Virus record (IMG/VR): IMGVR_UViG_3300045988_092438
Direction: 5' to 3' (one strand)
Source: a virus
DNA length: 64,000 bases
Positions within the stretch are counted from its first letter, which is position 1, and the number at the start of each line of letters is the position of its first letter. The position numbers and the translations under genes were made by a program. Shown in pieces: positions 14,913 through 57,123 of the stretch. The notes beneath the pieces are model-generated. The model did not search any database, was not told the origin of the DNA, and worked only from the letters and a program-made list of their open reading frames with translations.

Positions 14913-15461
14913 TTACTCACAATGAAGTACCACCTTTCCTTCTTTTAAAGACTTCTGTACATCAATCACTCTCTGGTTACTACTTCCTCTCCACTTGAGA
15001 TTAACGTCTCTGAGGTCTTTCTTATATTCACCGTCTACAAGTACATCAATCAAAGGAAGAATCTTTGCAACCCCTTCATCATAAGTACTGTATCTTCCAA
15101 CTCCTGTGTGTGTCCAAGATACACACTCTTCTAACTCTTCAAAAGTATAACCTGTATACACCCAAATTGTCTTGTCGGGAAAATGTTTTTTAATCTGTTC
15201 CATGAGGTTAAAAACAGAATGAATATTAAATACAGCAAGTGGGTCTCCACCACTAAAGGTTATTCCAAAAACATAGTCTTTAGACAGCTCATTAAAAATC
15301 TCCCTCTTTGCTTCTTCATCAAACTCAATCCCACTGTTAGGAGACCAAGTTTCGGGATTCTGACACTCTTCACAATGATGTGGACACCCAGACACCCAAA
15401 GTACTACTCTGATTCCATCACCATTTAACATATCTTCATGGGTAATGTTGTGATAATTCAT
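14913..15461 (-). CDS. nrdG: anaerobic ribonucleotide reductase activating protein (radical SAM)
   Basis: DGIRVVLWVSGCPHHCEECQNPETW motif; size is typical. Confidence 0.8.
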   Translation of the reverse strand: MNYHNITHEDMLNGDGIRVVLWVSGCPHHCEECQNPETWSPNSGIEFDEEAKREIFNELSKDYVFGITFSGGDPLAVFNIHSVFNLMEQIKKHFPDKTIWVYTGYTFEELEECVSWTHTGVGRYSTYDEGVAKILPLIDVLVDGEYKKDLRDVNLKWRGSSNQRVIDVQKSLKEGKVVLHCE

Positions 15462-18422: not shown

Positions 18423-18992
18423 TTACCCCTTTCTTCTCTCTTTAAATTCCTCATAACTGTCTTCAAATCCCGGATGTGTTCTTTTAAAGTATGTGATAGT
18501 ACTGCAATCACTCTCAGCACCACGACACTTCACACACTGGTGTGTTGCTTCTACCTCTACAAAGAGTGCATGAGGTTCAAGCATATTAAACAGGAACTCT
18601 CCAATCTCTGTAGTCAGCTTCTCCTGTAACTGTGGTCTCTTACTAAAGTACTTCACCACTCTTGGAAGTTTTGACAGTCCAATGATTGTGTCACTCGGAA
18701 CATAACCAATAGTGACTTTGCCGGAGAAAGGTAAGAAGTGGTGTTCACAAGTAGAGTTAAATTCAATATCCCTTACAATCACCATTTCACTCTCATACTC
18801 ATTCGGAAAGGTAGTCATGGTCTCCTTTAACTCCTTCATGTGAGCGTCATTCACATTTGCAAATAACTCATTCACCCACATCTTAGCCACTCTGAGGGGA
18901 GTGTTCTTATTGCTCTCTGTCTTTGGGATTTCAAGAATTCTCATAATCTCTTCAAGATGTTCCTTAATTGCTTCTACTTTGTTATTTATCAT
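18423..18992 (-). CDS. folE: GTP cyclohydrolase I
   Basis: CEHHFLPF, GLSKLPR and HQC..RG motifs. Confidence 0.85.
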   Translation of the reverse strand: MINNKVEAIKEHLEEIMRILEIPKTESNKNTPLRVAKMWVNELFANVNDAHMKELKETMTTFPNEYESEMVIVRDIEFNSTCEHHFLPFSGKVTIGYVPSDTIIGLSKLPRVVKYFSKRPQLQEKLTTEIGEFLFNMLEPHALFVEVEATHQCVKCRGAESDCSTITYFKRTHPGFEDSYEEFKERRKG

Positions 18993-19032
18993 AGTATATA
19001 CCTCCTTTATCTTGTAATCTTCATTATAACAT

Positions 19033-19069
19033 AAAAAAGCACTGGGTCAACCTATTGTCAACCCAATGC
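19033..19069 (-). terminator. rho-independent terminator
   Basis: 9-bp stem (with a G-U pair on the minus strand only) followed by TTTTTT. Confidence 0.6.
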
Positions 19070-19095
19070 TCTCTTACTTTTTGGCTGTGTGACGA

Positions 19096-19242
19096 TTATC
19101 GACCACGAACACGGTTTACTACGTTGGAAATACCATTACGGATAGCTCTTCCTGCTCTCTGAATAGCATTACCACCTCTACCGCTACGAGTAGAATTACC
19201 ACCACTACGTCCATTGCTAGGACCTGCGTATGCTTTCATCAT
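19096..19242 (-). CDS. 48-aa Gly/Arg/Asn-rich peptide, absent from the ORF track
   Basis: MMKAYAGPSNGRSGGNSTRSGRGGNAIQRAGRAIRNGISNVVNRVRGR. GGAGGA lies 7 nt upstream. Confidence 0.45.
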   Translation of the reverse strand: MMKAYAGPSNGRSGGNSTRSGRGGNAIQRAGRAIRNGISNVVNRVRGR

Positions 19243-19365
19243 AGTTTCGTCCTCCTTTTTGTATATTTGATTAAGGGTGTTCTTATAACAGGGGAATATA
19301 CATAAACACCTGTTAAAGTACGTTTTCTTAATCTTCTCTTACTATACCAGAGGAGCTTATCAAAG

Positions 19366-19983
19366 TCAATATGTTTCGCCATAAATTTCTTCAAGTGCAA
19401 GACAATCTGGACACTTCCCACAAGGGAAAATTTTCAGTGTTGGCTCGTTACATGAAAAGAAATCTGCCGGAGTAATATTGTGCTGTCTGGCTATGTCTTT
19501 AAAATCCCATTTATCCATATCTATGAATGGTGTTTCAATCTTTATATCAGAGTCTTTCAACACCTGCTCAAGATTATTAAAGAACTCACCAGTACAGTCA
19601 ATATATTCATGCCCCGGAATTGATTTAATTACAGCTACATAGATTTTCTTACTACCAATTCCTTGTGCTAAAGAAGAAGCATAAGCCATGAAGATAAGAT
19701 TGCGGTACTCTAAATACTGAGCGTCACCATCTAGGTCTGAGTGTTTTCTACCATAGAGAGTACTTGCTGTCCATCTAATAGGGTCAAGTCTCACATTATG
19801 ATAAATCATGTTCAGTTTCTTACACACCTTCTTAGCACAATGAGTTTCCATGAGTCGATTTCTGTTTCCATATTCAAAATGAAGGGAGTGAATTTCTGCG
19901 TCTGGGTGTTGGTCTCTTACATAGTGGCACAAACACACACTATCAAAACCACCACTGTTAAGTACAACAATCTTTTCTTTCAT
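19366..19983 (-). CDS. queC: 7-cyano-7-deazaguanine (preQ0) synthase
   Basis: VVLNSGGFDS PP-loop motif and C-terminal Cys cluster CGKCPDC. Confidence 0.85.
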   Translation of the reverse strand: MKEKIVVLNSGGFDSVCLCHYVRDQHPDAEIHSLHFEYGNRNRLMETHCAKKVCKKLNMIYHNVRLDPIRWTASTLYGRKHSDLDGDAQYLEYRNLIFMAYASSLAQGIGSKKIYVAVIKSIPGHEYIDCTGEFFNNLEQVLKDSDIKIETPFIDMDKWDFKDIARQHNITPADFFSCNEPTLKIFPCGKCPDCLALEEIYGETY

Positions 19984-19986
19984 AAA

Positions 19987-20313
19987 CTACCTCCGAAACA
20001 CATCTGGAATATCAGCCGGAAGAGAACTTCTTGAAGGTTTAGCTTTATTCACCGGATTGTGATAAAGAGGTTGACCCACGTTTCTCTGCTGTTTCTTCTC
20101 TTCTGGCTGTGATGTTCTAACAGGTTTTCTTCCTGCTACTTTATTCAGTCCATTGAGTCTTGCTGTCTCTTCATCTAAAATCTCTTTAGCTCCAATTTTA
20201 GCTCCATCATATCTTTCTTTGTCTGCCTTGATTTCTTCGGCTCTTGCTAAAGTGCGAGCGTCATCACGTCTCTGCCACTTTAACTCTTCTGGGTCTACTG
20301 GTCTTCTAATCAT
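19987..20313 (-). CDS. hypothetical charged protein
   Basis: 108 aa, GGAGGTAGGAAG RBS. Confidence 0.5.
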   Translation of the reverse strand: MIRRPVDPEELKWQRRDDARTLARAEEIKADKERYDGAKIGAKEILDEETARLNGLNKVAGRKPVRTSQPEEKKQQRNVGQPLYHNPVNKAKPSRSSLPADIPDVFRR

Positions 20314-20582
20314 CTTCCTACCTCCTCATAAGTCTTTTCAAAAATGTCTGGTTTGCATGGATAATATTCTCCGTTGACACCCTTGATGATATAATCTCCC
20401 ACACTTGCGTTCATAACACCTTCAAGTGTCTCAATCTTGAGTACAGGATTTTCTGGGTCTTCATAATTAACCCTTAAATCTTGAGTAGTGATAAACTCCG
20501 AAAGCTCACAAAGTCTTTCTGGGTTATCCAGAAATTGCACTGCTTCAATCACTACTGGTTTCTTTCTATATTGCTTTGCCAT
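20310..20582 (-). CDS. hypothetical phage protein
   Basis: 90 aa, GGAGG RBS. Confidence 0.55.
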   Translation of the reverse strand: MAKQYRKKPVVIEAVQFLDNPERLCELSEFITTQDLRVNYEDPENPVLKIETLEGVMNASVGDYIIKGVNGEYYPCKPDIFEKTYEEVGR

Positions 20583-20583
20583 A

Positions 20584-21225
20584 TTACTTTACCTCCAAAA
20601 TCTTATGAAGCTGTATCTGCACACGAACATCTAAATGGTCTTCCAGAATCCAATCAACTAATTCATGTCCAATGTATGCTTTTCCATCTGGGTTAAACAT
20701 AGGACTGACAAGAATTTTTGCGGAAGTAGGATATTTCTTCATTACTCCCTTCATAAACTCATAGTCTTCTCTGTCCTTGATGACATACTTAACCTCGTCA
20801 GTGTTTTGGAGTTTTAAAAGATTCTCATAAATGTTCTTGTGTTTCACTCCACTGGAAGGACCTTTAATGTCCATCACATATTTGTAACTTCGTCTGTAGC
20901 TTGGTTCTTCAAGTGGTACACACCCACTTGTCTCAATGGAGACTTTAAATCCCAGTGATTGTAATTCATATACCAGTGGTAATGCTTCATCATAGATTAA
21001 AGGTTCTCCACCAGTCAAGCAGATGTTCTTACACCACTTGTAGTCTTTGAGTACTGTCTGGACTATGTTACCCACAGAAATTCTCTTTCTGTCCTCTTTC
21101 TTCTGAGGTTGGTCGCAATAAGAACAACCAACAGGACACCCAAACAGACGGATAAAGACACAAGGAAGACCTGTATCACTTGACTCTCCCTGTATGCTAC
21201 AGAAAATTTCATCATAGTATAACAT
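20584..21225 (-). CDS. queE: 7-carboxy-7-deazaguanine synthase (radical SAM)
   Basis: SIQGES..G.PCVFIRLFGCPVGCSYCD motif. Confidence 0.85.
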   Translation of the reverse strand: MLYYDEIFCSIQGESSDTGLPCVFIRLFGCPVGCSYCDQPQKKEDRKRISVGNIVQTVLKDYKWCKNICLTGGEPLIYDEALPLVYELQSLGFKVSIETSGCVPLEEPSYRRSYKYVMDIKGPSSGVKHKNIYENLLKLQNTDEVKYVIKDREDYEFMKGVMKKYPTSAKILVSPMFNPDGKAYIGHELVDWILEDHLDVRVQIQLHKILEVK

Positions 21226-21237
21226 AGTCTTACCTCC

Positions 21238-21618
21238 TTATGACTCTAAAATAGAGTACTCTGCATAACTATCTGCTGTCTCCCACAGCTTCACACTTAC
21301 AAGGTGAACACCCTCTGGCAATCTGGAAATAATGTCGGAAGAAATAACCGAAACCATATTCTCTGCTGTCGGGTTAGGGAAATAGTCATTGAGATTGCAG
21401 TGGTCGTATTTATCCACAGCTACCTCTTTAACAATACGTTTCAAATCTTTAAAGTCAATAATCATTCCGCACTTTGGATTGTTCGTGTCTTTAATGATGT
21501 TGCCACCAACTGTCACACTGAGTTTGTAGGAGTGTCCATGAAGATTGTGACAAGCTCCTACATAGTGTGGCAGGTGGTGACACGCTTCAAAGCTAAAGTT
21601 CTTTGTTACTGTAATCAT
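21238..21618 (-). CDS. queD: 6-carboxytetrahydropterin synthase
   Basis: FSFEACHHLP..HNLHGHSY motif. GGAGG RBS before ATG 21618. The track's 48-aa N-terminal extension overlaps the upstream gene and was rejected. Confidence 0.85.
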   Translation of the reverse strand: MITVTKNFSFEACHHLPHYVGACHNLHGHSYKLSVTVGGNIIKDTNNPKCGMIIDFKDLKRIVKEVAVDKYDHCNLNDYFPNPTAENMVSVISSDIISRLPEGVHLVSVKLWETADSYAEYSILES

Positions 21619-21631
21619 CACCTGCACCTCC

Positions 21632-22159
21632 TTACATTGTTGATAACTCTGCAAAACACCAGTCATCTGCAAGCATATCTGCTTGAGAAGCAAGCCAACC
21701 CATCTGTACACCAGAAGTGCCAACAAATGCGATTGCTTGATTTCCGATTGCTTTATGCTCACAGTTTGCTACATGACCAGAAGGTGTTTTGTAGCTGATG
21801 TTACTTGCAAGTTCAATGTACTGGTCTTTACCATTCCAACCTTTACGCTTTACTCTAAAGCCACGTTTCATATACTTGATTGCTTCACCAAATGAGAATG
21901 TGGCAATACCACCAAGTAAAGGTGTATTGTGTTCATCAGCAATAACCCATTCATCACTGAGAACATTGGAAAGTGTGTACTCAACTCTTTGAGTCTCACG
22001 AATGTCCAGTGGAGATTTCTGTCCATTGTCAACATCATCTTGTCTACAGTACATCATAATGGTCTGTTTGTTGTTATCCCAACACCAGTAACCACCCCAT
22101 GATGGAAGTTTGACTTTGTGACCCTGTTTCATAGCTTCTAATGCTTCTTTAAAATACAT
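21632..22159 (-). CDS. tandem DUF2829 (Tad2-like) protein
   Basis: Two repeats: FKEALEAMKQGHKVKLPSWGG and FGEAIKYMKRGFRVKRKGWNGKDQYI. Confidence 0.65.
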   Translation of the reverse strand: MYFKEALEAMKQGHKVKLPSWGGYWCWDNNKQTIMMYCRQDDVDNGQKSPLDIRETQRVEYTLSNVLSDEWVIADEHNTPLLGGIATFSFGEAIKYMKRGFRVKRKGWNGKDQYIELASNISYKTPSGHVANCEHKAIGNQAIAFVGTSGVQMGWLASQADMLADDWCFAELSTM

Positions 22160-22175
22160 AATAAATTCTCCTTTC

Positions 22176-22454
22176 TTATTCTACAATCAGTCTTGCGATT
22201 AACACAGTCTTATCACCGTCAATGTCTGCAACATCATAACCCGGTCTGAAAGATAAGACTTTACCTTTTTGAGCAAAGATACTACTGGCAGTAGCCATAG
22301 CTTTAAACATCTGGTTTACACTAGAAGCTCCAATAGCTCTTAACTCAATATCAGTATATCCTGCTTCATAAGTCTTAACAATACTTCCGGCAGTCTCTTT
22401 TGTAGGAGAAGAGCCGGACACTCTAAGTACTTTTGTTTTATTAGGTACACCCAT
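22176..22454 (-). CDS. SpoVS-like protein
   Basis: Collinear with B. subtilis SpoVS (LRVSG.S....AG.I......G....L.AIGA..VNQ..KA.A.A...........DG.....I.L.VE). Confidence 0.7.
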   Translation of the reverse strand: MGVPNKTKVLRVSGSSPTKETAGSIVKTYEAGYTDIELRAIGASSVNQMFKAMATASSIFAQKGKVLSFRPGYDVADIDGDKTVLIARLIVE

Positions 22455-52892: not shown

Positions 52893-53027
52893 CTATTTAG
52901 CAAGTTTAGGATAACCCTTCTCTTTTAAAGCCTGTTTTACTTCGTCTTTGAGCTGTGCAGGAACTTCTGCATAAGTCTTATCTCCTGCGATAATCTTATC
53001 AGCCCAAAGTTGTGAAATTTTCTTCAT
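52893..53027 (-). CDS. XkdX-like 44-aa peptide, absent from the ORF track
   Basis: MKKISQLWADKIIAGDKTYAEVPAQLKDEVKQALKEKGYPKLAK. GGAGG RBS. Paralogous to 53055..53201. Confidence 0.55.
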   Translation of the reverse strand: MKKISQLWADKIIAGDKTYAEVPAQLKDEVKQALKEKGYPKLAK

Positions 53028-53054: not shown

Positions 53055-53201
53055 TTACTGTTGTGCAGGTGTTTCTGTAACAAGAAACTCTACACCACTC
53101 TCAATGAGAATTTCCTTGACCTGCTCTTTGAGAAGTCTCGGAACATCATTGTAAGTCTTCTTACCATTCATAATTCTCTGTGCCCAAAGCATTGCAATCA
53201 T
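53055..53201 (-). CDS. XkdX-like 48-aa peptide
   Basis: AGGAGG RBS before ATG 53201: MIAMLWAQRIMNGKKTYNDVPRLLKEQVKEILIESG... Confidence 0.55.
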   Translation of the reverse strand: MIAMLWAQRIMNGKKTYNDVPRLLKEQVKEILIESGVEFLVTETPAQQ

Positions 53202-53253
53202 GGTGTCTCCCTCCTTTCCAAAAGTTATGAAAAGGCGAAGTTGGTCTAAAACA

Positions 53254-53565
53254 TTAAGCATAGACAACCTCACTCATTTCCAGAATCATATCTTCCAGGG
53301 AAGTAGCTCTTTCATTAAGAGTAACCTGCCCTGTAGACAAAGCGGTTAAAAATTCGTCTTTCTCATACTCCTTCACAGTGTAAGAGTACAGAGGAACTAA
53401 TTCTTGACCTTCTGCTAACTGTCCTTTTTCAGCCACACGTTCACTCTCTGGAACTTCTTTAATGTTGGTATTCACATACACATGACTACCATCATATTCA
53501 ACTTCCTTCGGCTTTACTGTTGACTGAACATTTTCCATTGTTTTCATTGGCTTTCTTTCCTCCAT
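53254..53565 (-). CDS. hypothetical acidic protein (XkdW position)
   Basis: Overlaps the 3' end of the RT ORF. The likely start is ATG 53547, after GGAGG. Confidence 0.45.
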   Translation of the reverse strand: MEERKPMKTMENVQSTVKPKEVEYDGSHVYVNTNIKEVPESERVAEKGQLAEGQELVPLYSYTVKEYEKDEFLTALSTGQVTLNERATSLEDMILEMSEVVYA

Positions 53566-54679
53566 TCTTTAAATGATTTATATAATACTCCTCCACAGGT
53601 TTCTCTAAAGGTTTGAAGTACTTCTTATACAGTCTGTAACTGTTACAGTAAGATAGCCAACCCTTGTAGGAGTTAATACAACAGTAGTCGGAGTAAGACA
53701 TTTCTACACCACTCTCCACCTTCAAGCGAATTTTCGTCATCTTTGACTTCATTCTCTTTGAAGTAGAAGCTCTTAATAAAACAAAATCCGGGAATACTCT
53801 ATACCCGACAAAATCTACTCCTCTGTCTGCTACTGGGAACACTTGATAATTACTCTTGATAGTCAAGTGTCTCTCCACTCGCATATATTCTATAATCTCC
53901 CATTTCAACTTATATAAGTACTCTTTGGAGTGGTGGAGGATAACAATATCATCCATGTATCTGTAATAGTACTTAATACCTTTGACTTCTTTTATCCAGT
54001 GGTCGAAAGGTGATAAGTAAAAGTTTCCGCTAAACTGAGAAAGGTAGTTGCCTATTGGAATACCTGTATCGGAAGACATTGTGATGTTTAATTCTAAATA
54101 CCACAGAAGACCTTCATCTTTGAAAATTCTTCTGTAGTCATTCAAAAGGATTTCTCTGTCAATAGATGGATAGTATTTCTTAACGTCCATCTTTAAACAG
54201 TATTGAGTACCTTCAACATCATTTTGTATGTCATTTCTTACCCTTTCAAAAGCTAAATGAATACCTCTGTCTGGAATTGCGGAGTAGGTATCATATATGA
54301 ACTGCCTTAAAAGGATTGGAGCTATCACCTGTAGGACAGCCCACTGTATAACTCTTTCTGGGAAGTAACGTGACTTATAAATAACCCTTTCCTTCTCACG
54401 TTCTTTTCTTAGGAATTTCTCATAAGGTAGTGGAACATAAGTCCTTAACACTAACATATTCTGTATAGCTTTAAGGTGTTTCTCTGGGTCTTTATTGAAG
54501 TCACGAACTTCTTTGTACCAGTGTTTACCTTTACTAGCGTTTTTGTGTGCAAGTTTAAGATTTTCAATGGAACAAATCTTTTCCCATATAGTAAGCGTCT
54601 TATCTTCTTTCCCAGTTACAGGGTCTATAGGATATAAATGACGCTTCATAAACCATGTACTCCAAAGCCTAATCTTCAA
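53498..54679 (-). CDS. DGR-type reverse transcriptase
   Basis: IPIGNYLSQFSGNFYL and YYRYMDDIVIL motifs, with adjacent TR/VR. The likely true start is ATG 54649 (MKRHLYPID...). Confidence 0.9.
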   Translation of the reverse strand: MKIRLWSTWFMKRHLYPIDPVTGKEDKTLTIWEKICSIENLKLAHKNASKGKHWYKEVRDFNKDPEKHLKAIQNMLVLRTYVPLPYEKFLRKEREKERVIYKSRYFPERVIQWAVLQVIAPILLRQFIYDTYSAIPDRGIHLAFERVRNDIQNDVEGTQYCLKMDVKKYYPSIDREILLNDYRRIFKDEGLLWYLELNITMSSDTGIPIGNYLSQFSGNFYLSPFDHWIKEVKGIKYYYRYMDDIVILHHSKEYLYKLKWEIIEYMRVERHLTIKSNYQVFPVADRGVDFVGYRVFPDFVLLRASTSKRMKSKMTKIRLKVESGVEMSYSDYCCINSYKGWLSYCNSYRLYKKYFKPLEKPVEEYYINHLKNGGKKANENNGKCSVNSKAEGS

Positions 54680-54881
54680 ACGCTTTGTAAAGGTGTACCT
54701 TCTTTACTCAGCTACCAACAAGACTATCTGCTGTCAATGAAACACTATATGTTCTACCATCATACTTGTGTCATTTAACACTGATGACCTAACCCATGTT
54801 AGAGAGGTAGGGTAAAGAAGTTACACGGATTTTTAATTTATTTCAAAAGTAAACACTTCCGAAACTGAGTACAGTGCCGTG

Positions 54882-54987
54882 AAGTGGTCGCTGATATTAC
54901 AATTACGATTAGAAGCCACATTATTCAGATTCCAATAGAACAGCTCAGATTTCGTACCATTATTCCAATTCGTACCCAATAGGGTAA
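54882..54987 (-). repeat. DGR template repeat (TR)
   Basis: 106-nt repeat of 55241..55346. The sense strand is rich in AAT codons (..NWNNGTKSELFYWNLNNVASNRNCNISDH). Confidence 0.9.
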
Positions 54988-55200
54988 ATACTTGGAACAC
55001 TCATATTACTGAGCGTCCAAGTATTTCATGTGTACTGTTGGTGGCAAGAAATTCTGTAATTCTTGACCGCTTATAACCCAAATCATTACCCGATTTAGTG
55101 AAGTGGTGTTTCGTCACAATCACTGTTAATATTATAACCTTAATTCAAGCGTTTGTAAAGAAGATAGGCTTCTCCTTTCTTCAAAATTTTTTCTTTAGTT

Positions 55201-57123
55201 TTATGCTACTGCAATAGTGACTGTCTTTGATTTTCTGCACAAGCGGCCGCCGACAGTACAATCACGAACAGAAGCCACAAAATCCAGACCCCAACAGAAC
55301 AGCCCAGAATCCGTAACAACATCCCAATCCGCACCCAATAGGGCAATGTAGATGCTATTGTTACTCATATTGACATAGTAGTAATCACCTACAGGTCTGT
55401 TACTGTCTCCACCGACTTTAGAGGTCATATACATGAAATCACAATCTTCGGAGTAACCAAAGGCTTTAATATAACCCTCTTTTGTAGCACAGCTAAATCC
55501 AGTAGCAATATAGTCTGCGATTGTGTCAGAGAAGTCTTTACTTCCGTCCTGCCAGTATGCTTCATTACAGTCACTACTTGCGGAATGTTTTCTGAGGAAT
55601 CCATCAATGAATTTCCAGATGTTTCCGAAAGGATTCTTAACACCTCTGTAAACAGGAACATCAACATTGTAAGCAGTACCATTAGAGTGTGTATAATTAA
55701 CAGTAATCTTACCACTGCCATTTCCTAAAGTGGTGTTTGCCGGATTAGGTACAGAGTTGTTAATGTTATCTACCCAAGGAAGATTTGTAACACCACTACC
55801 GAAGACACTTACTGCTTGAATGTTAAATGTTGCATACTCTACCACAAATAACATCTGCTCTGCACTTGCAATAGTAACGTCTTCTTGAATCCAGTCTACA
55901 CCTCTGTTAGCACACAGTTTTCTAACTGCGTCTCTTGTAAGGTTCTTGTTACCAGTAGCACTTACTCCGGCAACAGTAGCTCCACTTGCAGGTTTAGCTC
56001 TGGCAATAGAACTGAACTTCTGTCCAGTGTAAGGACTTGCAGAGAGTGTGCCACTATCAGTGAGGTCATAAGTTCCACGGGTTTCAATACAACCATCATT
56101 CTCACCAATAAAGTAGTAATCAAGCTCTACATCACCTTTCTTAAATGCCGGGTGAAGTTTAAATCCGTCTCTTGCTGTAGGACTGATAAGGTCAATCCAC
56201 TTGGTCATGTGATAGCCCTTTACTTGATAGGTGTCATCAACCTGCTTCTCAAGTCTGACAGGGATTCTCTTGTAATAGAACTTAGGTTGCATAACCATAC
56301 ACTGTACTTTAGTTCCTACAGCTACGTCACCTACTGCTACAGTTAAAGCTCCTGTCTCTGTATAGGCTTCATCACCATAGAAAGCAACAACTTTTCCGTC
56401 ATCAGTTACATTGCATCTTCGTCTGTTACCATATACAGGAGACTTGTCATAATCTTCACCTGCACTCCAATACTGGTTATCACCCATTCTCTTAACACTG
56501 TTGTTGTCAAGGTCTACTTCTACACCCATAACACCTTCTCCAAGAGTTCCGAGCTGAACTTGAAGGTCAATAACTGTGTTAGAGAGGTTGCTAAAGCTAA
56601 TCTCCTTACACAGTCTTGTCATAACACCATCAGCAACTTTAGCAATAGCAAGATTATGTCTTGCCGAATCTGTTGTAGTTGCAAGAGTGTATTTAACCAC
56701 TTTACGTCTGGAAGTCTCTGTATCAGAACGATTGTCTTTAAACCAGTTAGTTACAGTAGTACTGTCCTGCTGATTTCCCTCTTCTTTCAGTGTTTCACTG
56801 TAAGTAGCTGTATCTTCCCACACTTGAAGGTAAACAGTTCCACTTGAAGCTGTAAGAGAGAGTCCAGTGCTTTCAACCATGTAACCACCAACTGCTAAAG
56901 CACAACCCTCTTTTACTTTTACTGCCCCACCTTCATACACAATCTTACTGAGGTCAGTGACACCATCACCAATGATGTTTTTGATAGCTCTTCTAAGCAT
57001 ACTCTTCTGAATTTCCTGCACTTCATTCATTTCTACTTCAAGAAGTGGTTTTTCAGCACCAAAGACAACACCGGAAACTCCTGCGTTGTCTCTATGATTT
57101 GTGTATTTATCAAAACTTGCCAT
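55201..57123 (-). CDS. tail fibre / receptor-binding protein, DGR target (C-terminal CLec-type variable region)
   Basis: 640 aa. The VR encodes ALLGADWDVVTDSGLFCWGLDFVASVRDCTVGGRLC, 13 codons before the stop. Confidence 0.85.
   Translation of the reverse strand: MASFDKYTNHRDNAGVSGVVFGAEKPLLEVEMNEVQEIQKSMLRRAIKNIIGDGVTDLSKIVYEGGAVKVKEGCALAVGGYMVESTGLSLTASSGTVYLQVWEDTATYSETLKEEGNQQDSTTVTNWFKDNRSDTETSRRKVVKYTLATTTDSARHNLAIAKVADGVMTRLCKEISFSNLSNTVIDLQVQLGTLGEGVMGVEVDLDNNSVKRMGDNQYWSAGEDYDKSPVYGNRRRCNVTDDGKVVAFYGDEAYTETGALTVAVGDVAVGTKVQCMVMQPKFYYKRIPVRLEKQVDDTYQVKGYHMTKWIDLISPTARDGFKLHPAFKKGDVELDYYFIGENDGCIETRGTYDLTDSGTLSASPYTGQKFSSIARAKPASGATVAGVSATGNKNLTRDAVRKLCANRGVDWIQEDVTIASAEQMLFVVEYATFNIQAVSVFGSGVTNLPWVDNINNSVPNPANTTLGNGSGKITVNYTHSNGTAYNVDVPVYRGVKNPFGNIWKFIDGFLRKHSASSDCNEAYWQDGSKDFSDTIADYIATGFSCATKEGYIKAFGYSEDCDFMYMTSKVGGDSNRPVGDYYYVNMSNNSIYIALLGADWDVVTDSGLFCWGLDFVASVRDCTVGGRLCRKSKTVTIAVA
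55241..55346 (-). repeat. DGR variable repeat (VR) inside the fibre gene
   Basis: Hand alignment at offset 359 gives 24 mismatches. 23 of these lie where the TR sense strand has A. Confidence 0.9.

Follow-up and report, generated by a model that had tools for sequence, protein, structure and literature searches.

An Avd-less diversity-generating retroelement in the tail module of an uncultivated low-GC phage

The 64,000-nucleotide stretch of DNA analyzed here (IMG/VR virus record IMGVR_UViG_3300045988_092438; hereafter the window, to which all feature positions refer) comes from an uncultivated phage, and its tail module carries a genuine and recently active diversity-generating retroelement (DGR) whose reverse transcriptase (RT) rewrites the receptor-binding tip of a tail fiber protein. 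In our assessment the locus is very probably a functional DGR of the 'Architecture A1' type, in which the target gene is followed by a template repeat and the RT gene with no gene for the accessory protein Avd, carried by a phage of ~86 kb with a low guanine-plus-cytosine (GC) content. All genes of the window lie on the minus strand, the GC content is 37%, and both composition and gene content are those of a single large phage. A DGR acting on a phage tail fiber is a textbook case of a kind of system that is already known, and the absence of Avd is a known feature of its class that carries no novelty. What the analysis adds to the original prediction of this DGR is the Avd-less state, an invariant sigma70-type promoter, covarying long-range RNA helices and a small acidic open reading frame (ORF) coupled to the RT. 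The extra interest of the locus therefore lies in a delimited Avd-less cassette with an RNA scaffold that is supported by covariation.

Results

An adenine-biased repeat pair with a continually rewritten recipient

The original prediction paired a template repeat (TR) downstream of the tail fiber gene with a variable repeat (VR) at the 3' end of that gene, and the same pair of positions was recovered by an independent repeat search (106 nt, 77% identity, spacing 359; Table 1). A base-by-base recount on the sense (minus) strand reproduced every number of that prediction, with 24 mismatches between TR and VR, 23 of which fall at one of the 31 TR adenines, and a clear excess of A-to-G changes (17, against 5 A-to-T and 1 A-to-C). 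The only mismatch elsewhere is a G-to-T change in codon 603. When the alignment was checked for mismatches not biased to TR adenines, the bias stayed (Fisher exact p = 1.5e-15). The homology ends abruptly on either side of the repeat, a gap of 213 nt separates VR from TR, and the window contains a single VR, which matches the TR at 74 of its 75 non-adenine positions, as compared with 37 of 75 at the next best site. The TR is rich in AAT codons, as had been claimed; read in the frame of the target it presents nine AAT codons together with one AAA, one TAT and one ATC, such that the adenines stand at codon positions 1 and 2. This signature extends to related loci: an adenine-biased TR/VR pair was found in 81 of 139, with 1511 of 1594 mismatches at TR adenines, and the VR-to-TR gap is at most 252 nt in 66 of these 81 loci of the RT clade.

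Comparison among homologs reveals where the target protein varies. A total of 711 homologs of the target were found, the close ones on contigs of 82-89 kb, and column entropy was calculated from the 86 that share at least 88% identity with it. The resulting mean entropy is 0.16 bits over residues 1-592, rises to 1.12 bits over residues 593-627 and falls to 0.04 bits over residues 628-640. The 12 most variable columns of the whole protein (599, 601, 602, 605, 610, 612, 614, 615, 619, 621, 623 and 624) have entropies of 1.7-3.65 bits and adjoin codons with entropies of about zero, and they correspond exactly to the nine AAT codons and the AAA, TAT and ATC codons of the TR. Variation of the VR among phages, which the original prediction expected, is thus present and is concentrated in 12 codons that carry TR adenines, with a combined coding capacity of about 1.2e13 protein variants.

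Whole loci from 15 related genomes gave 15 distinct VRs and TRs that are 96-100% identical. In these VRs 303 of 329 mismatches to the TR are at adenines, which corresponds to substitution at 65% of adenine sites and 2.3% of non-adenine sites. Relatives whose remaining 3.4 kb differs from the window by 1.3-5% have VRs that diverge by 13-21% and TRs that differ by zero or one base, and relatives that differ by 18% overall show just three TR changes. Expressed per 106 nt, there are 0-3 differences in the TR versus 14-22 in the VR. This is the pattern produced when a donor is conserved and its recipient is rewritten over and over.

A reverse transcriptase of the DGR type

The IGNYLSQF and YMDD motifs on which the original prediction based its DGR assignment are both present in the RT. 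The ORF as listed begins at TTG 54679; the likely start is ATG 54649, which has GGAG 10 nt upstream, and numbering from this ATG places IGNYLSQ at residues 199-205 and YMDD at residues 231-234. The DGR signature is [I/V/L]GxxxSQ, where group II and retroviral RTs have QGxxxSP (PMC7826257). When all PDB sequences were searched, the best match of the RT was entry 8ub7 (E = 2.4e-32), followed by a group II intron RT (4e-12), a retron-type RT (1.8e-10) and Drt3a (2.4e-5), and these E-values place the RT nearer in sequence to DGR RTs than to the RTs of group II introns, retrons or defense systems. The molecule name in 8ub7 is just 'Reverse transcriptase', and the entry was taken to be bRT, the Bordetella phage RT, in the bRT-Avd-RNA complex, since its aligned chain is numbered in agreement with the bRT residues named in the cited papers; bRT is therefore the closest solved relative. 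Counterparts of bRT Arg74, Ile181 and Gln187 are also retained in the alignment to 8ub7. The first two promote adenine mutagenesis by bRT (PMC7826257), and all three residues touch the incoming deoxynucleoside triphosphate (dNTP) in a cryo-electron microscopy structure (10.1101/2023.10.23.563531). The RT also matches PHROG 1423, reverse transcriptase (6e-114), and among deposited RTs the one from Psychrobacillus phage Perkons is nearest at 52% identity, followed by those of crAss-like phages at 40-42%.

The variable tip of the tail fiber protein

The VR lies at the extreme C-terminus of the target, and the original prediction described this region as a lectin-like tip. Searches of Pfam, NCBIfam and PDB with the full target or with the C-terminal part by itself gave nothing useful, a profile of close homologs did no better against Pfam and PDB, and no Pfam lectin, FGE-sulfatase or DUF1566 domain was matched. 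PDB matches required a profile built from 17 diverse C-termini of related DGR loci, and this profile matched two of 177,635 PDB sequences, namely TaqVP of Thermus aquaticus (5vf4, 7e-4) and Mtd of phage BPP-1 (1yu4, 0.02). Both are DGR variable proteins with a C-type-lectin fold (Mtd/TvpA/TaqVP type), and the match spans the region of the GNxWxF motif as well as the VR. A first full-length AlphaFold prediction from a shallow alignment was unusable in the C-terminal half, where the predicted local distance difference test score (pLDDT) was ~23. In contrast, AlphaFold2 with 70 homologs yielded a confident model of residues 385-640 (pLDDT 90, predicted template modeling score 0.87). A Foldseek search of PDB with this model returned 5vf4 TaqVP first (probability 1.00, E 9e-4, TMq 0.52), then 1yu4 Mtd (probability 0.84) and then weak C-type-lectin matches. 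No PDB entries other than TaqVP (5vf4) and Mtd (1yu0-1yu4) were accordingly recovered by sequence profile and fold search alike, and the model, together with these sole significant matches, supports a C-type-lectin (CLec) fold for the VR-bearing tip. The VR of the locus aligns with the C-terminal VRs of TaqVP and Mtd and a GNxWEW-like motif is common to them, with an identity of 10-14% and a TM-score of just 0.34-0.52; the predicted tips of tail fibers from gut phages are much closer. Specifically, a search of predicted viral structures (BFVD) returned tail (collar) fiber proteins of uncultured gut phages, crAss-like phages included, with TM-scores of ~0.8.

The name 'tail fiber', also given in the original prediction, is an annotation-level label. 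It derives from the match of the target to PHROG 5302 'tail protein' (E = 3e-76), from the BFVD matches and from the position of the gene between genes for a baseplate wedge subunit and a pectate-lyase-like tailspike on one side and the lysis cassette on the other. The ORFs downstream are XkdX/CD1375-like, holin-like and, for the endolysin, of the LysM type. Taken together, the RT, the adenine bias, the variation among homologs and the fold each independently support the adenine-specific mutagenic homing that was originally read from this locus.

Table 1 Positions of the DGR features in the window.
Feature	Position	Strand	Description
Tail-fiber-like target gene	55201..57123	minus	640 aa; 12 codons and the stop follow the VR
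CLec domain (predicted)	55204..55971	minus	Target residues 385-640; holds the YRGVKNPFGNIWKFIDG motif and the VR
VR	55241-55346	minus	106 nt; codons 593-628 of the 640-aa target
VR hypervariable core	55252..55341	minus	Codons 595-624
Candidate IMH	55243..55251	minus	GC-only VR 3' end; VR GGCGGCCGC versus TR AGCGACCAC (candidate IMH*)
Predicted sigma70-type promoter	55131..55159	minus	TTTACA-17 nt-TATAAT; 11/12 consensus; between target stop and TR
Helix A, 5' strand	55106..55112	minus	GAAACAC; upstream of TR; pairs with 54739-54745
Helix A, 3' strand	54739..54745	minus	GUGUUUC; spacer downstream of TR
Helix B, 5' strand	55083..55091	minus	Inner 8 bp (GGGUAAUGA); pairs with 54810-54818
Helix B, 3' strand	54810..54818	minus	Spacer downstream of TR
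TR	54882-54987	minus	106 nt; 31 adenines; untranslated
TR-end hairpin	54854..54886	minus	TR CACUUC.CGG with spacer UCG.GAAGUG
Spacer	54650..54881	minus	TR to RT start; conserved structured non-coding RNA
DGR RT	53498..54649	minus	383 aa; Pfam RVT_1; IGNYLSQ and YMDD
Small acidic ORF	53254..53565	minus	103 aa (53254..53547 from Met7, 97 aa); overlaps RT 3' end; isoelectric point 4.5

A predicted promoter and a covarying RNA scaffold

Both hexamers of the predicted promoter and the spacing between them are invariant in seven sequences from five lineages while the flanking bases vary. This conservation points to promoter function, and the predicted transcript would start near 55124 and include TR, spacer and RT. 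Just upstream of the -35 hexamer, every lineage keeps a purine-rich block (TTGARGRAAGGAGAA, 55170-55184, minus). The block looks like a ribosome-binding site, yet no start codon follows it, and it may be a site for a regulator or belong to a target recognition region downstream of the VR.

The segments on either side of the TR can pair with one another across it. Helix A has compensatory changes at five of its seven pairs, and its variants (GAAACAC/GUGUUUC, AAGGUAC/GUACCUU, AGAGUAC/GUACUCU and AAGAUAC/GUAUCUU) are all perfectly complementary. Helix B has compensatory changes at three of its eight inner pairs with 100% of cells paired, and a weaker extension reaches 55067 with 81-88% paired. 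In an alignment of 13 sequences that represent about five independent lineages, 97.1% of the cells of these RNA pairings are paired versus 39-47% in slid controls, 11 pairs covary, and the covariation score was reached by none of 500 shuffles. The segment upstream of the TR had to be included before the consensus fold displayed this long-range pairing; a first consensus fold of the spacer was superseded once the upstream sequence was added, and so was a local pairing between GUGUAACUUCUUUAC and GUAAAGAAGGUACAC, since covariation favors the long-range alternative. We claim the scaffold for lineages with at least 79% RT identity, because the RNAduplex energy test for flanking duplexes was not discriminating in distant DGRs of the clade (mean z -1.0). 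Within the spacer there are conserved blocks and hairpins, one of which has three covarying pairs, and no Rfam family matched the TR region or the spacer.

These elements can be set beside the RNA scaffold of the BPP-1 DGR. In BPP-1, an RNA duplex between upstream and downstream segments stops reverse transcription, and the 3' end of the TR forms a cis-priming duplex with the spacer (TR117-129:Sp47-56) that includes a priming adenosine (10.1101/2023.10.23.563531). The BPP-1 scaffold also has an Avd-binding stem-loop just downstream of the TR, an element with no meaning in a locus that lacks Avd. Helices A (7 bp) and B (8 bp) provide an upstream/downstream duplex of this kind here and by analogy would be equivalent to the 'cPRT Stop' element of BPP-1, and the TR-end hairpin is likewise a candidate template:primer duplex for cis-primed synthesis of complementary DNA (cDNA). 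Handa et al. surveyed RNA elements in Avd-containing DGRs only (10.1101/2023.10.23.563531), and no report of RNA structure for the Avd-less class was found in the cited DGR literature.

Other candidates in this region were rejected. A 15-nt inverted repeat that links the end of the VR to a segment located upstream of the TR was attributed to chance, as it involves hypervariable VR positions. A 40-aa ORF (55001..55123) and a 55-aa ORF over the TR have no family matches and their frames are broken by indels in relatives, and gene calling in four independent assemblies from other lineages placed nothing between the target and the RT.

The 3' end of the VR

The VR ends in a 9-nt run of G and C in a genome of 37% GC, and where this end differs from the TR, G is fixed or close to fixed (13-15 of the 15 VRs). 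In keeping with the BPP-1 model of the initiation of mutagenic homing (IMH) sequence (PMC5758913), we regard this end as a candidate IMH and its TR counterpart as a candidate IMH*, with the reservation that the BPP-1 IMH is 34 bp and the candidate is much shorter. TR positions 96 and 103 are nearly always G in the VRs, and the always-G group at the 3' side sits within the GC-only VR end and fits an IMH/IMH* pair. The fixed A-to-G differences also create a perfect 8-bp palindrome in the VR (GCGGCCGC, 55243-55250) where the TR (GCGACCAC) has none, and this palindrome is kept in 13 of the 15 VRs.

The missing Avd and a small acidic ORF

How does the locus compare with DGR classes defined by accessory genes? 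Avd is found in 74% of DGRs and defines Architecture B, whereas Architecture A, with TR and RT and without an accessory gene, makes up 29% of 372 DGRs; Wu et al. proposed Avd-independent homing for this class, in whose genomes they detected no remote avd (PMC5758913). The locus resembles Architecture A1 (Wu et al. 2018, PMC5758913) in its TR-RT core, in a target located directly upstream and in the lack of an accessory gene, an assignment made by gene arrangement. Among the 59 small minus-strand ORFs of the window there was no match to Pfam bAvd/23S_rRNA_IVP, ten basic ORFs of Avd size gave no bAvd match even at E<=1, and no Avd ORF fits into the 213-nt gap between VR and TR. As a positive control, Pfam bAvd detects the Avd of a distant locus (L138) at 1.7e-21.

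Homologs of the small acidic ORF, among them L034:7104-7346, L061:4028-4252 and L145:5001-5270, are found immediately behind the RT in every close relative, in DGR loci with 49-57% RT identity and in a second group of phages of 62-67 kb. The family is rare (37 clusters in 5.8e9 proteins), corresponds to PHROG 18126 of unknown function and has no Pfam, PDB or GenBank phage match. Identification of this 103-aa ORF as Avd was rejected, given that it is acidic and lacks a bAvd match, and a resemblance to XkdW was confirmed by neither Pfam nor PDB. The ORF is a candidate for either an accessory gene or a neighboring gene of the tail module, two roles that are indistinguishable here because the whole tail-lysis module is syntenic in these phages.

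A different small ORF was observed in distant DGRs. In seven loci (L026, L075, L071, L082, L132, L035 and L133), in which the gap between VR and TR is 369-392 nt, a conserved ORF of ~95 aa (KFSEF...DGEKMSI...INRYYTLT) occupies the usual position of avd with no Pfam Avd match, and it may represent another non-Avd accessory family.

Alternative explanations

Several observations weigh against a functional, Avd-less DGR. All evidence of activity is comparative, between genomes, and none comes directly from the genome itself or from within one population. The search for Avd covered 64 kb of a genome of ~86 kb, with ~22 kb outside the window. The TR-end hairpin keeps nine of nine pairs in 13 sequences and is almost invariant, hence without covariation support. 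Every one of the 15 VRs has G opposite the adenines at TR positions 3, 15, 43 and 100, and position 43 corresponds to Gly607, which is invariant in 121 proteins and stands between hypervariable sites; such fixed-G sites imply that homing is followed each time by heavy purifying selection or else that there is a site-specific bias. At the variable sites the spectrum is G-biased (A.41, G.36, T.15, C.08), where misincorporation by bRT in vitro is biased toward dATP; selection may be the cause of the G bias. Finally, no significant GC-rich hairpin was found within 120 nt after the VR (DNA fold z = -0.02), and a GC-rich inverted repeat occurs downstream of the IMH in 34% of DGRs only (PMC5758913).

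The alternative that survives best is that the RT depends on an unrecognized accessory protein, which could be a divergent Avd, provided by the host or by a gene in the ~22 kb beyond the window, or the product of the small acidic ORF acting as a new accessory. The strict requirement of bRT for Avd (PMC6182149, 10.1101/2023.10.23.563531) favors this proposal, as do the overlap of the small ORF with the RT stop, its position after the RT in every context examined and its rarity. Against it stand the synteny of the entire tail-lysis module, by which linkage is not specific evidence, the acidic nature of a protein that would be replacing a basic one, its lack of detectable similarity to anything, and the failure of Wu et al. 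to find a remote avd in the class. On balance we consider an unrecognized accessory unlikely. A related hypothesis, that the covarying RNA scaffold and the small acidic protein, the latter as an unrecognized accessory, jointly replace Avd in this Avd-less clade, is speculative and we regard it as rather improbable; if true, it would represent a second solution to the assembly of the DGR ribonucleoprotein.

A second alternative is that the DGR is a fossil that was active in an ancestor and is now inert, such that VR differences are inherited alleles shuffled by recombination. The between-genome nature of the evidence is compatible with a fossil, and the four adenines fixed as G in all VRs show that the TR/VR difference is in part an old and stable one. 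This scenario is nevertheless very hard to reconcile with genomes that share 99-100% identical RTs, identical TRs and 98-99% identical flanks and still differ at 14-22 of 106 VR positions, almost exclusively at TR-adenine sites. Moreover, the RT ORF is intact, the TR, the promoter and the RNA helices are under clear purifying selection, and the TR has accumulated only three changes in lineages that have diverged by 18%. For these reasons a fossil DGR is very improbable.

The last alternative, an RT of another class (group II intron, retron or Abi/DRT defense) beside a drifted partial duplication of the fiber gene, could draw on the generic RVT_1 that is all Pfam reports for the RT and on the exclusively sub-threshold NCBIfam matches to group II intron RT/maturase (88 bits versus a cut-off of 300), Drt3a and retron RT, and it is effectively refuted, since the BPP-1 DGR RT is the best solved relative by 20 orders of magnitude, the DGR-specific IGNYLSQ stands in place of QGxxxSP, and drift can neither place 23 of 24 differences on one base nor hold one copy invariant while the other is unique to each genome.

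Other genes in the window

Between the DGR and the holin and endolysin genes lie two paralogous XkdX/CD1375-like small ORFs (52893-53027 and 53055-53273, minus), an arrangement that is conserved in all related phages. Elsewhere, a set of genes for synthesis of the 7-deazaguanine preQ0 spans 18423-21762 on the minus strand (ORFs 18423..18992, 19366..19983, 20584..21225 and 21238..21762) and encodes GTP cyclohydrolase I (3e-50), QueC (6e-32), a radical-SAM QueE-like protein and PTPS/QueD (4e-31). This gene set suggests that the phage may modify guanines in its own DNA. Beside the Que genes are ORFs for a protein with a Tad2-like anti-Thoeris domain (1.6e-25; 21632-22159, minus), which has a provisional start and overlaps the QueD ORF in another frame, and for a SpoVS homolog (1.5e-12; 22176-22454, minus). 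A Fer4_12/radical-SAM protein of the anaerobic ribonucleotide reductase activase type (1.3e-48; 14913-15461, minus) is consistent with an anaerobic host.

A near-identity search found no DNA-level match to the locus in GenBank phages. Likewise, no close relative was found in 185,579 representative genomes, and no host was assigned by that route. A host among the Firmicutes is suggested by three features of the window, the SpoVS homolog, the LysM endolysin and the CD1375-like proteins. DGRs of gut and Firmicutes phages used for comparison were those of the crAss-like phage cr55_1 and others, Psychrobacillus phage Perkons, Hankyphage and the GuFi phages.

Discussion

The preferred interpretation, a functional DGR without Avd, invites comparison with the BPP-1 DGR (mtd - avd - TR - brt). 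The two systems have homologous RTs with the same signature motif and the same dNTP-contacting residues, a TR upstream of the RT, and a VR at the 3' end of a tail fiber gene whose variable residues are presented by a CLec fold. Both also have a GC-rich VR end unlike that of the TR, a TR whose 3' end is able to pair with the spacer, and RNA duplexes between upstream and downstream segments around the TR. Unlike BPP-1, the locus lacks avd, having only the 213 nt between VR and TR, and lacks a GC-rich hairpin after the VR. Its diversifying codon is AAT rather than AAC, in line with a low-GC genome, its TR/VR homology stops ~5 nt past the putative priming duplex, its RT is 55 aa longer, and its observed spectrum is G-biased.

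A fundamental issue is how such a cassette would carry out mutagenic homing, and the observations can be assembled into a model. Transcription from the dedicated promoter (55159-55131) would yield a TR-spacer-RT RNA, in which helices A and B, as their covariation shows, join the regions on either side of the TR and leave the TR looped out. The 3' end of the TR would then pair with the spacer for priming, as in BPP-1, and the RT would make cDNA from the TR with misincorporation opposite adenines; the adenine-specific outcome is what the repeats display, and the enzymology is proposed on the grounds that the signature motif and the counterparts of bRT R74 and I181 are conserved. The cDNA would replace the VR at the 3' end of the tail fiber gene, an outcome visible among the relatives, with the GC-rich VR end (GGCGGCCGC) as the putative IMH and its TR counterpart (AGCGACCAC) as a putative IMH* that would protect the TR from being overwritten. 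The result is the randomization of 12 codons on the predicted ligand-binding face of a tip with a C-type-lectin fold, with up to ~1e13 variants, so that every sampled genome has its own tip. By these means the phage presumably tracks changes in the receptors of its host.

Small, self-contained DGRs are wanted as programmable mutagenesis tools. The cassette described here is compact, comprising a promoter, ~135 nt of upstream RNA, a 106-nt TR, a 232-nt spacer and a 383-aa RT, which makes it a reasonable candidate for reconstitution, and as an Avd-less cassette it bears on the priming and control of cDNA synthesis in Avd-independent DGRs. In practical terms, the locus pinpoints the receptor-binding tip in a lineage of uncultivated phages of ~86 kb that is met again and again in public metagenome assemblies, and the evidence from the locus is that diversification of this tip is ongoing.

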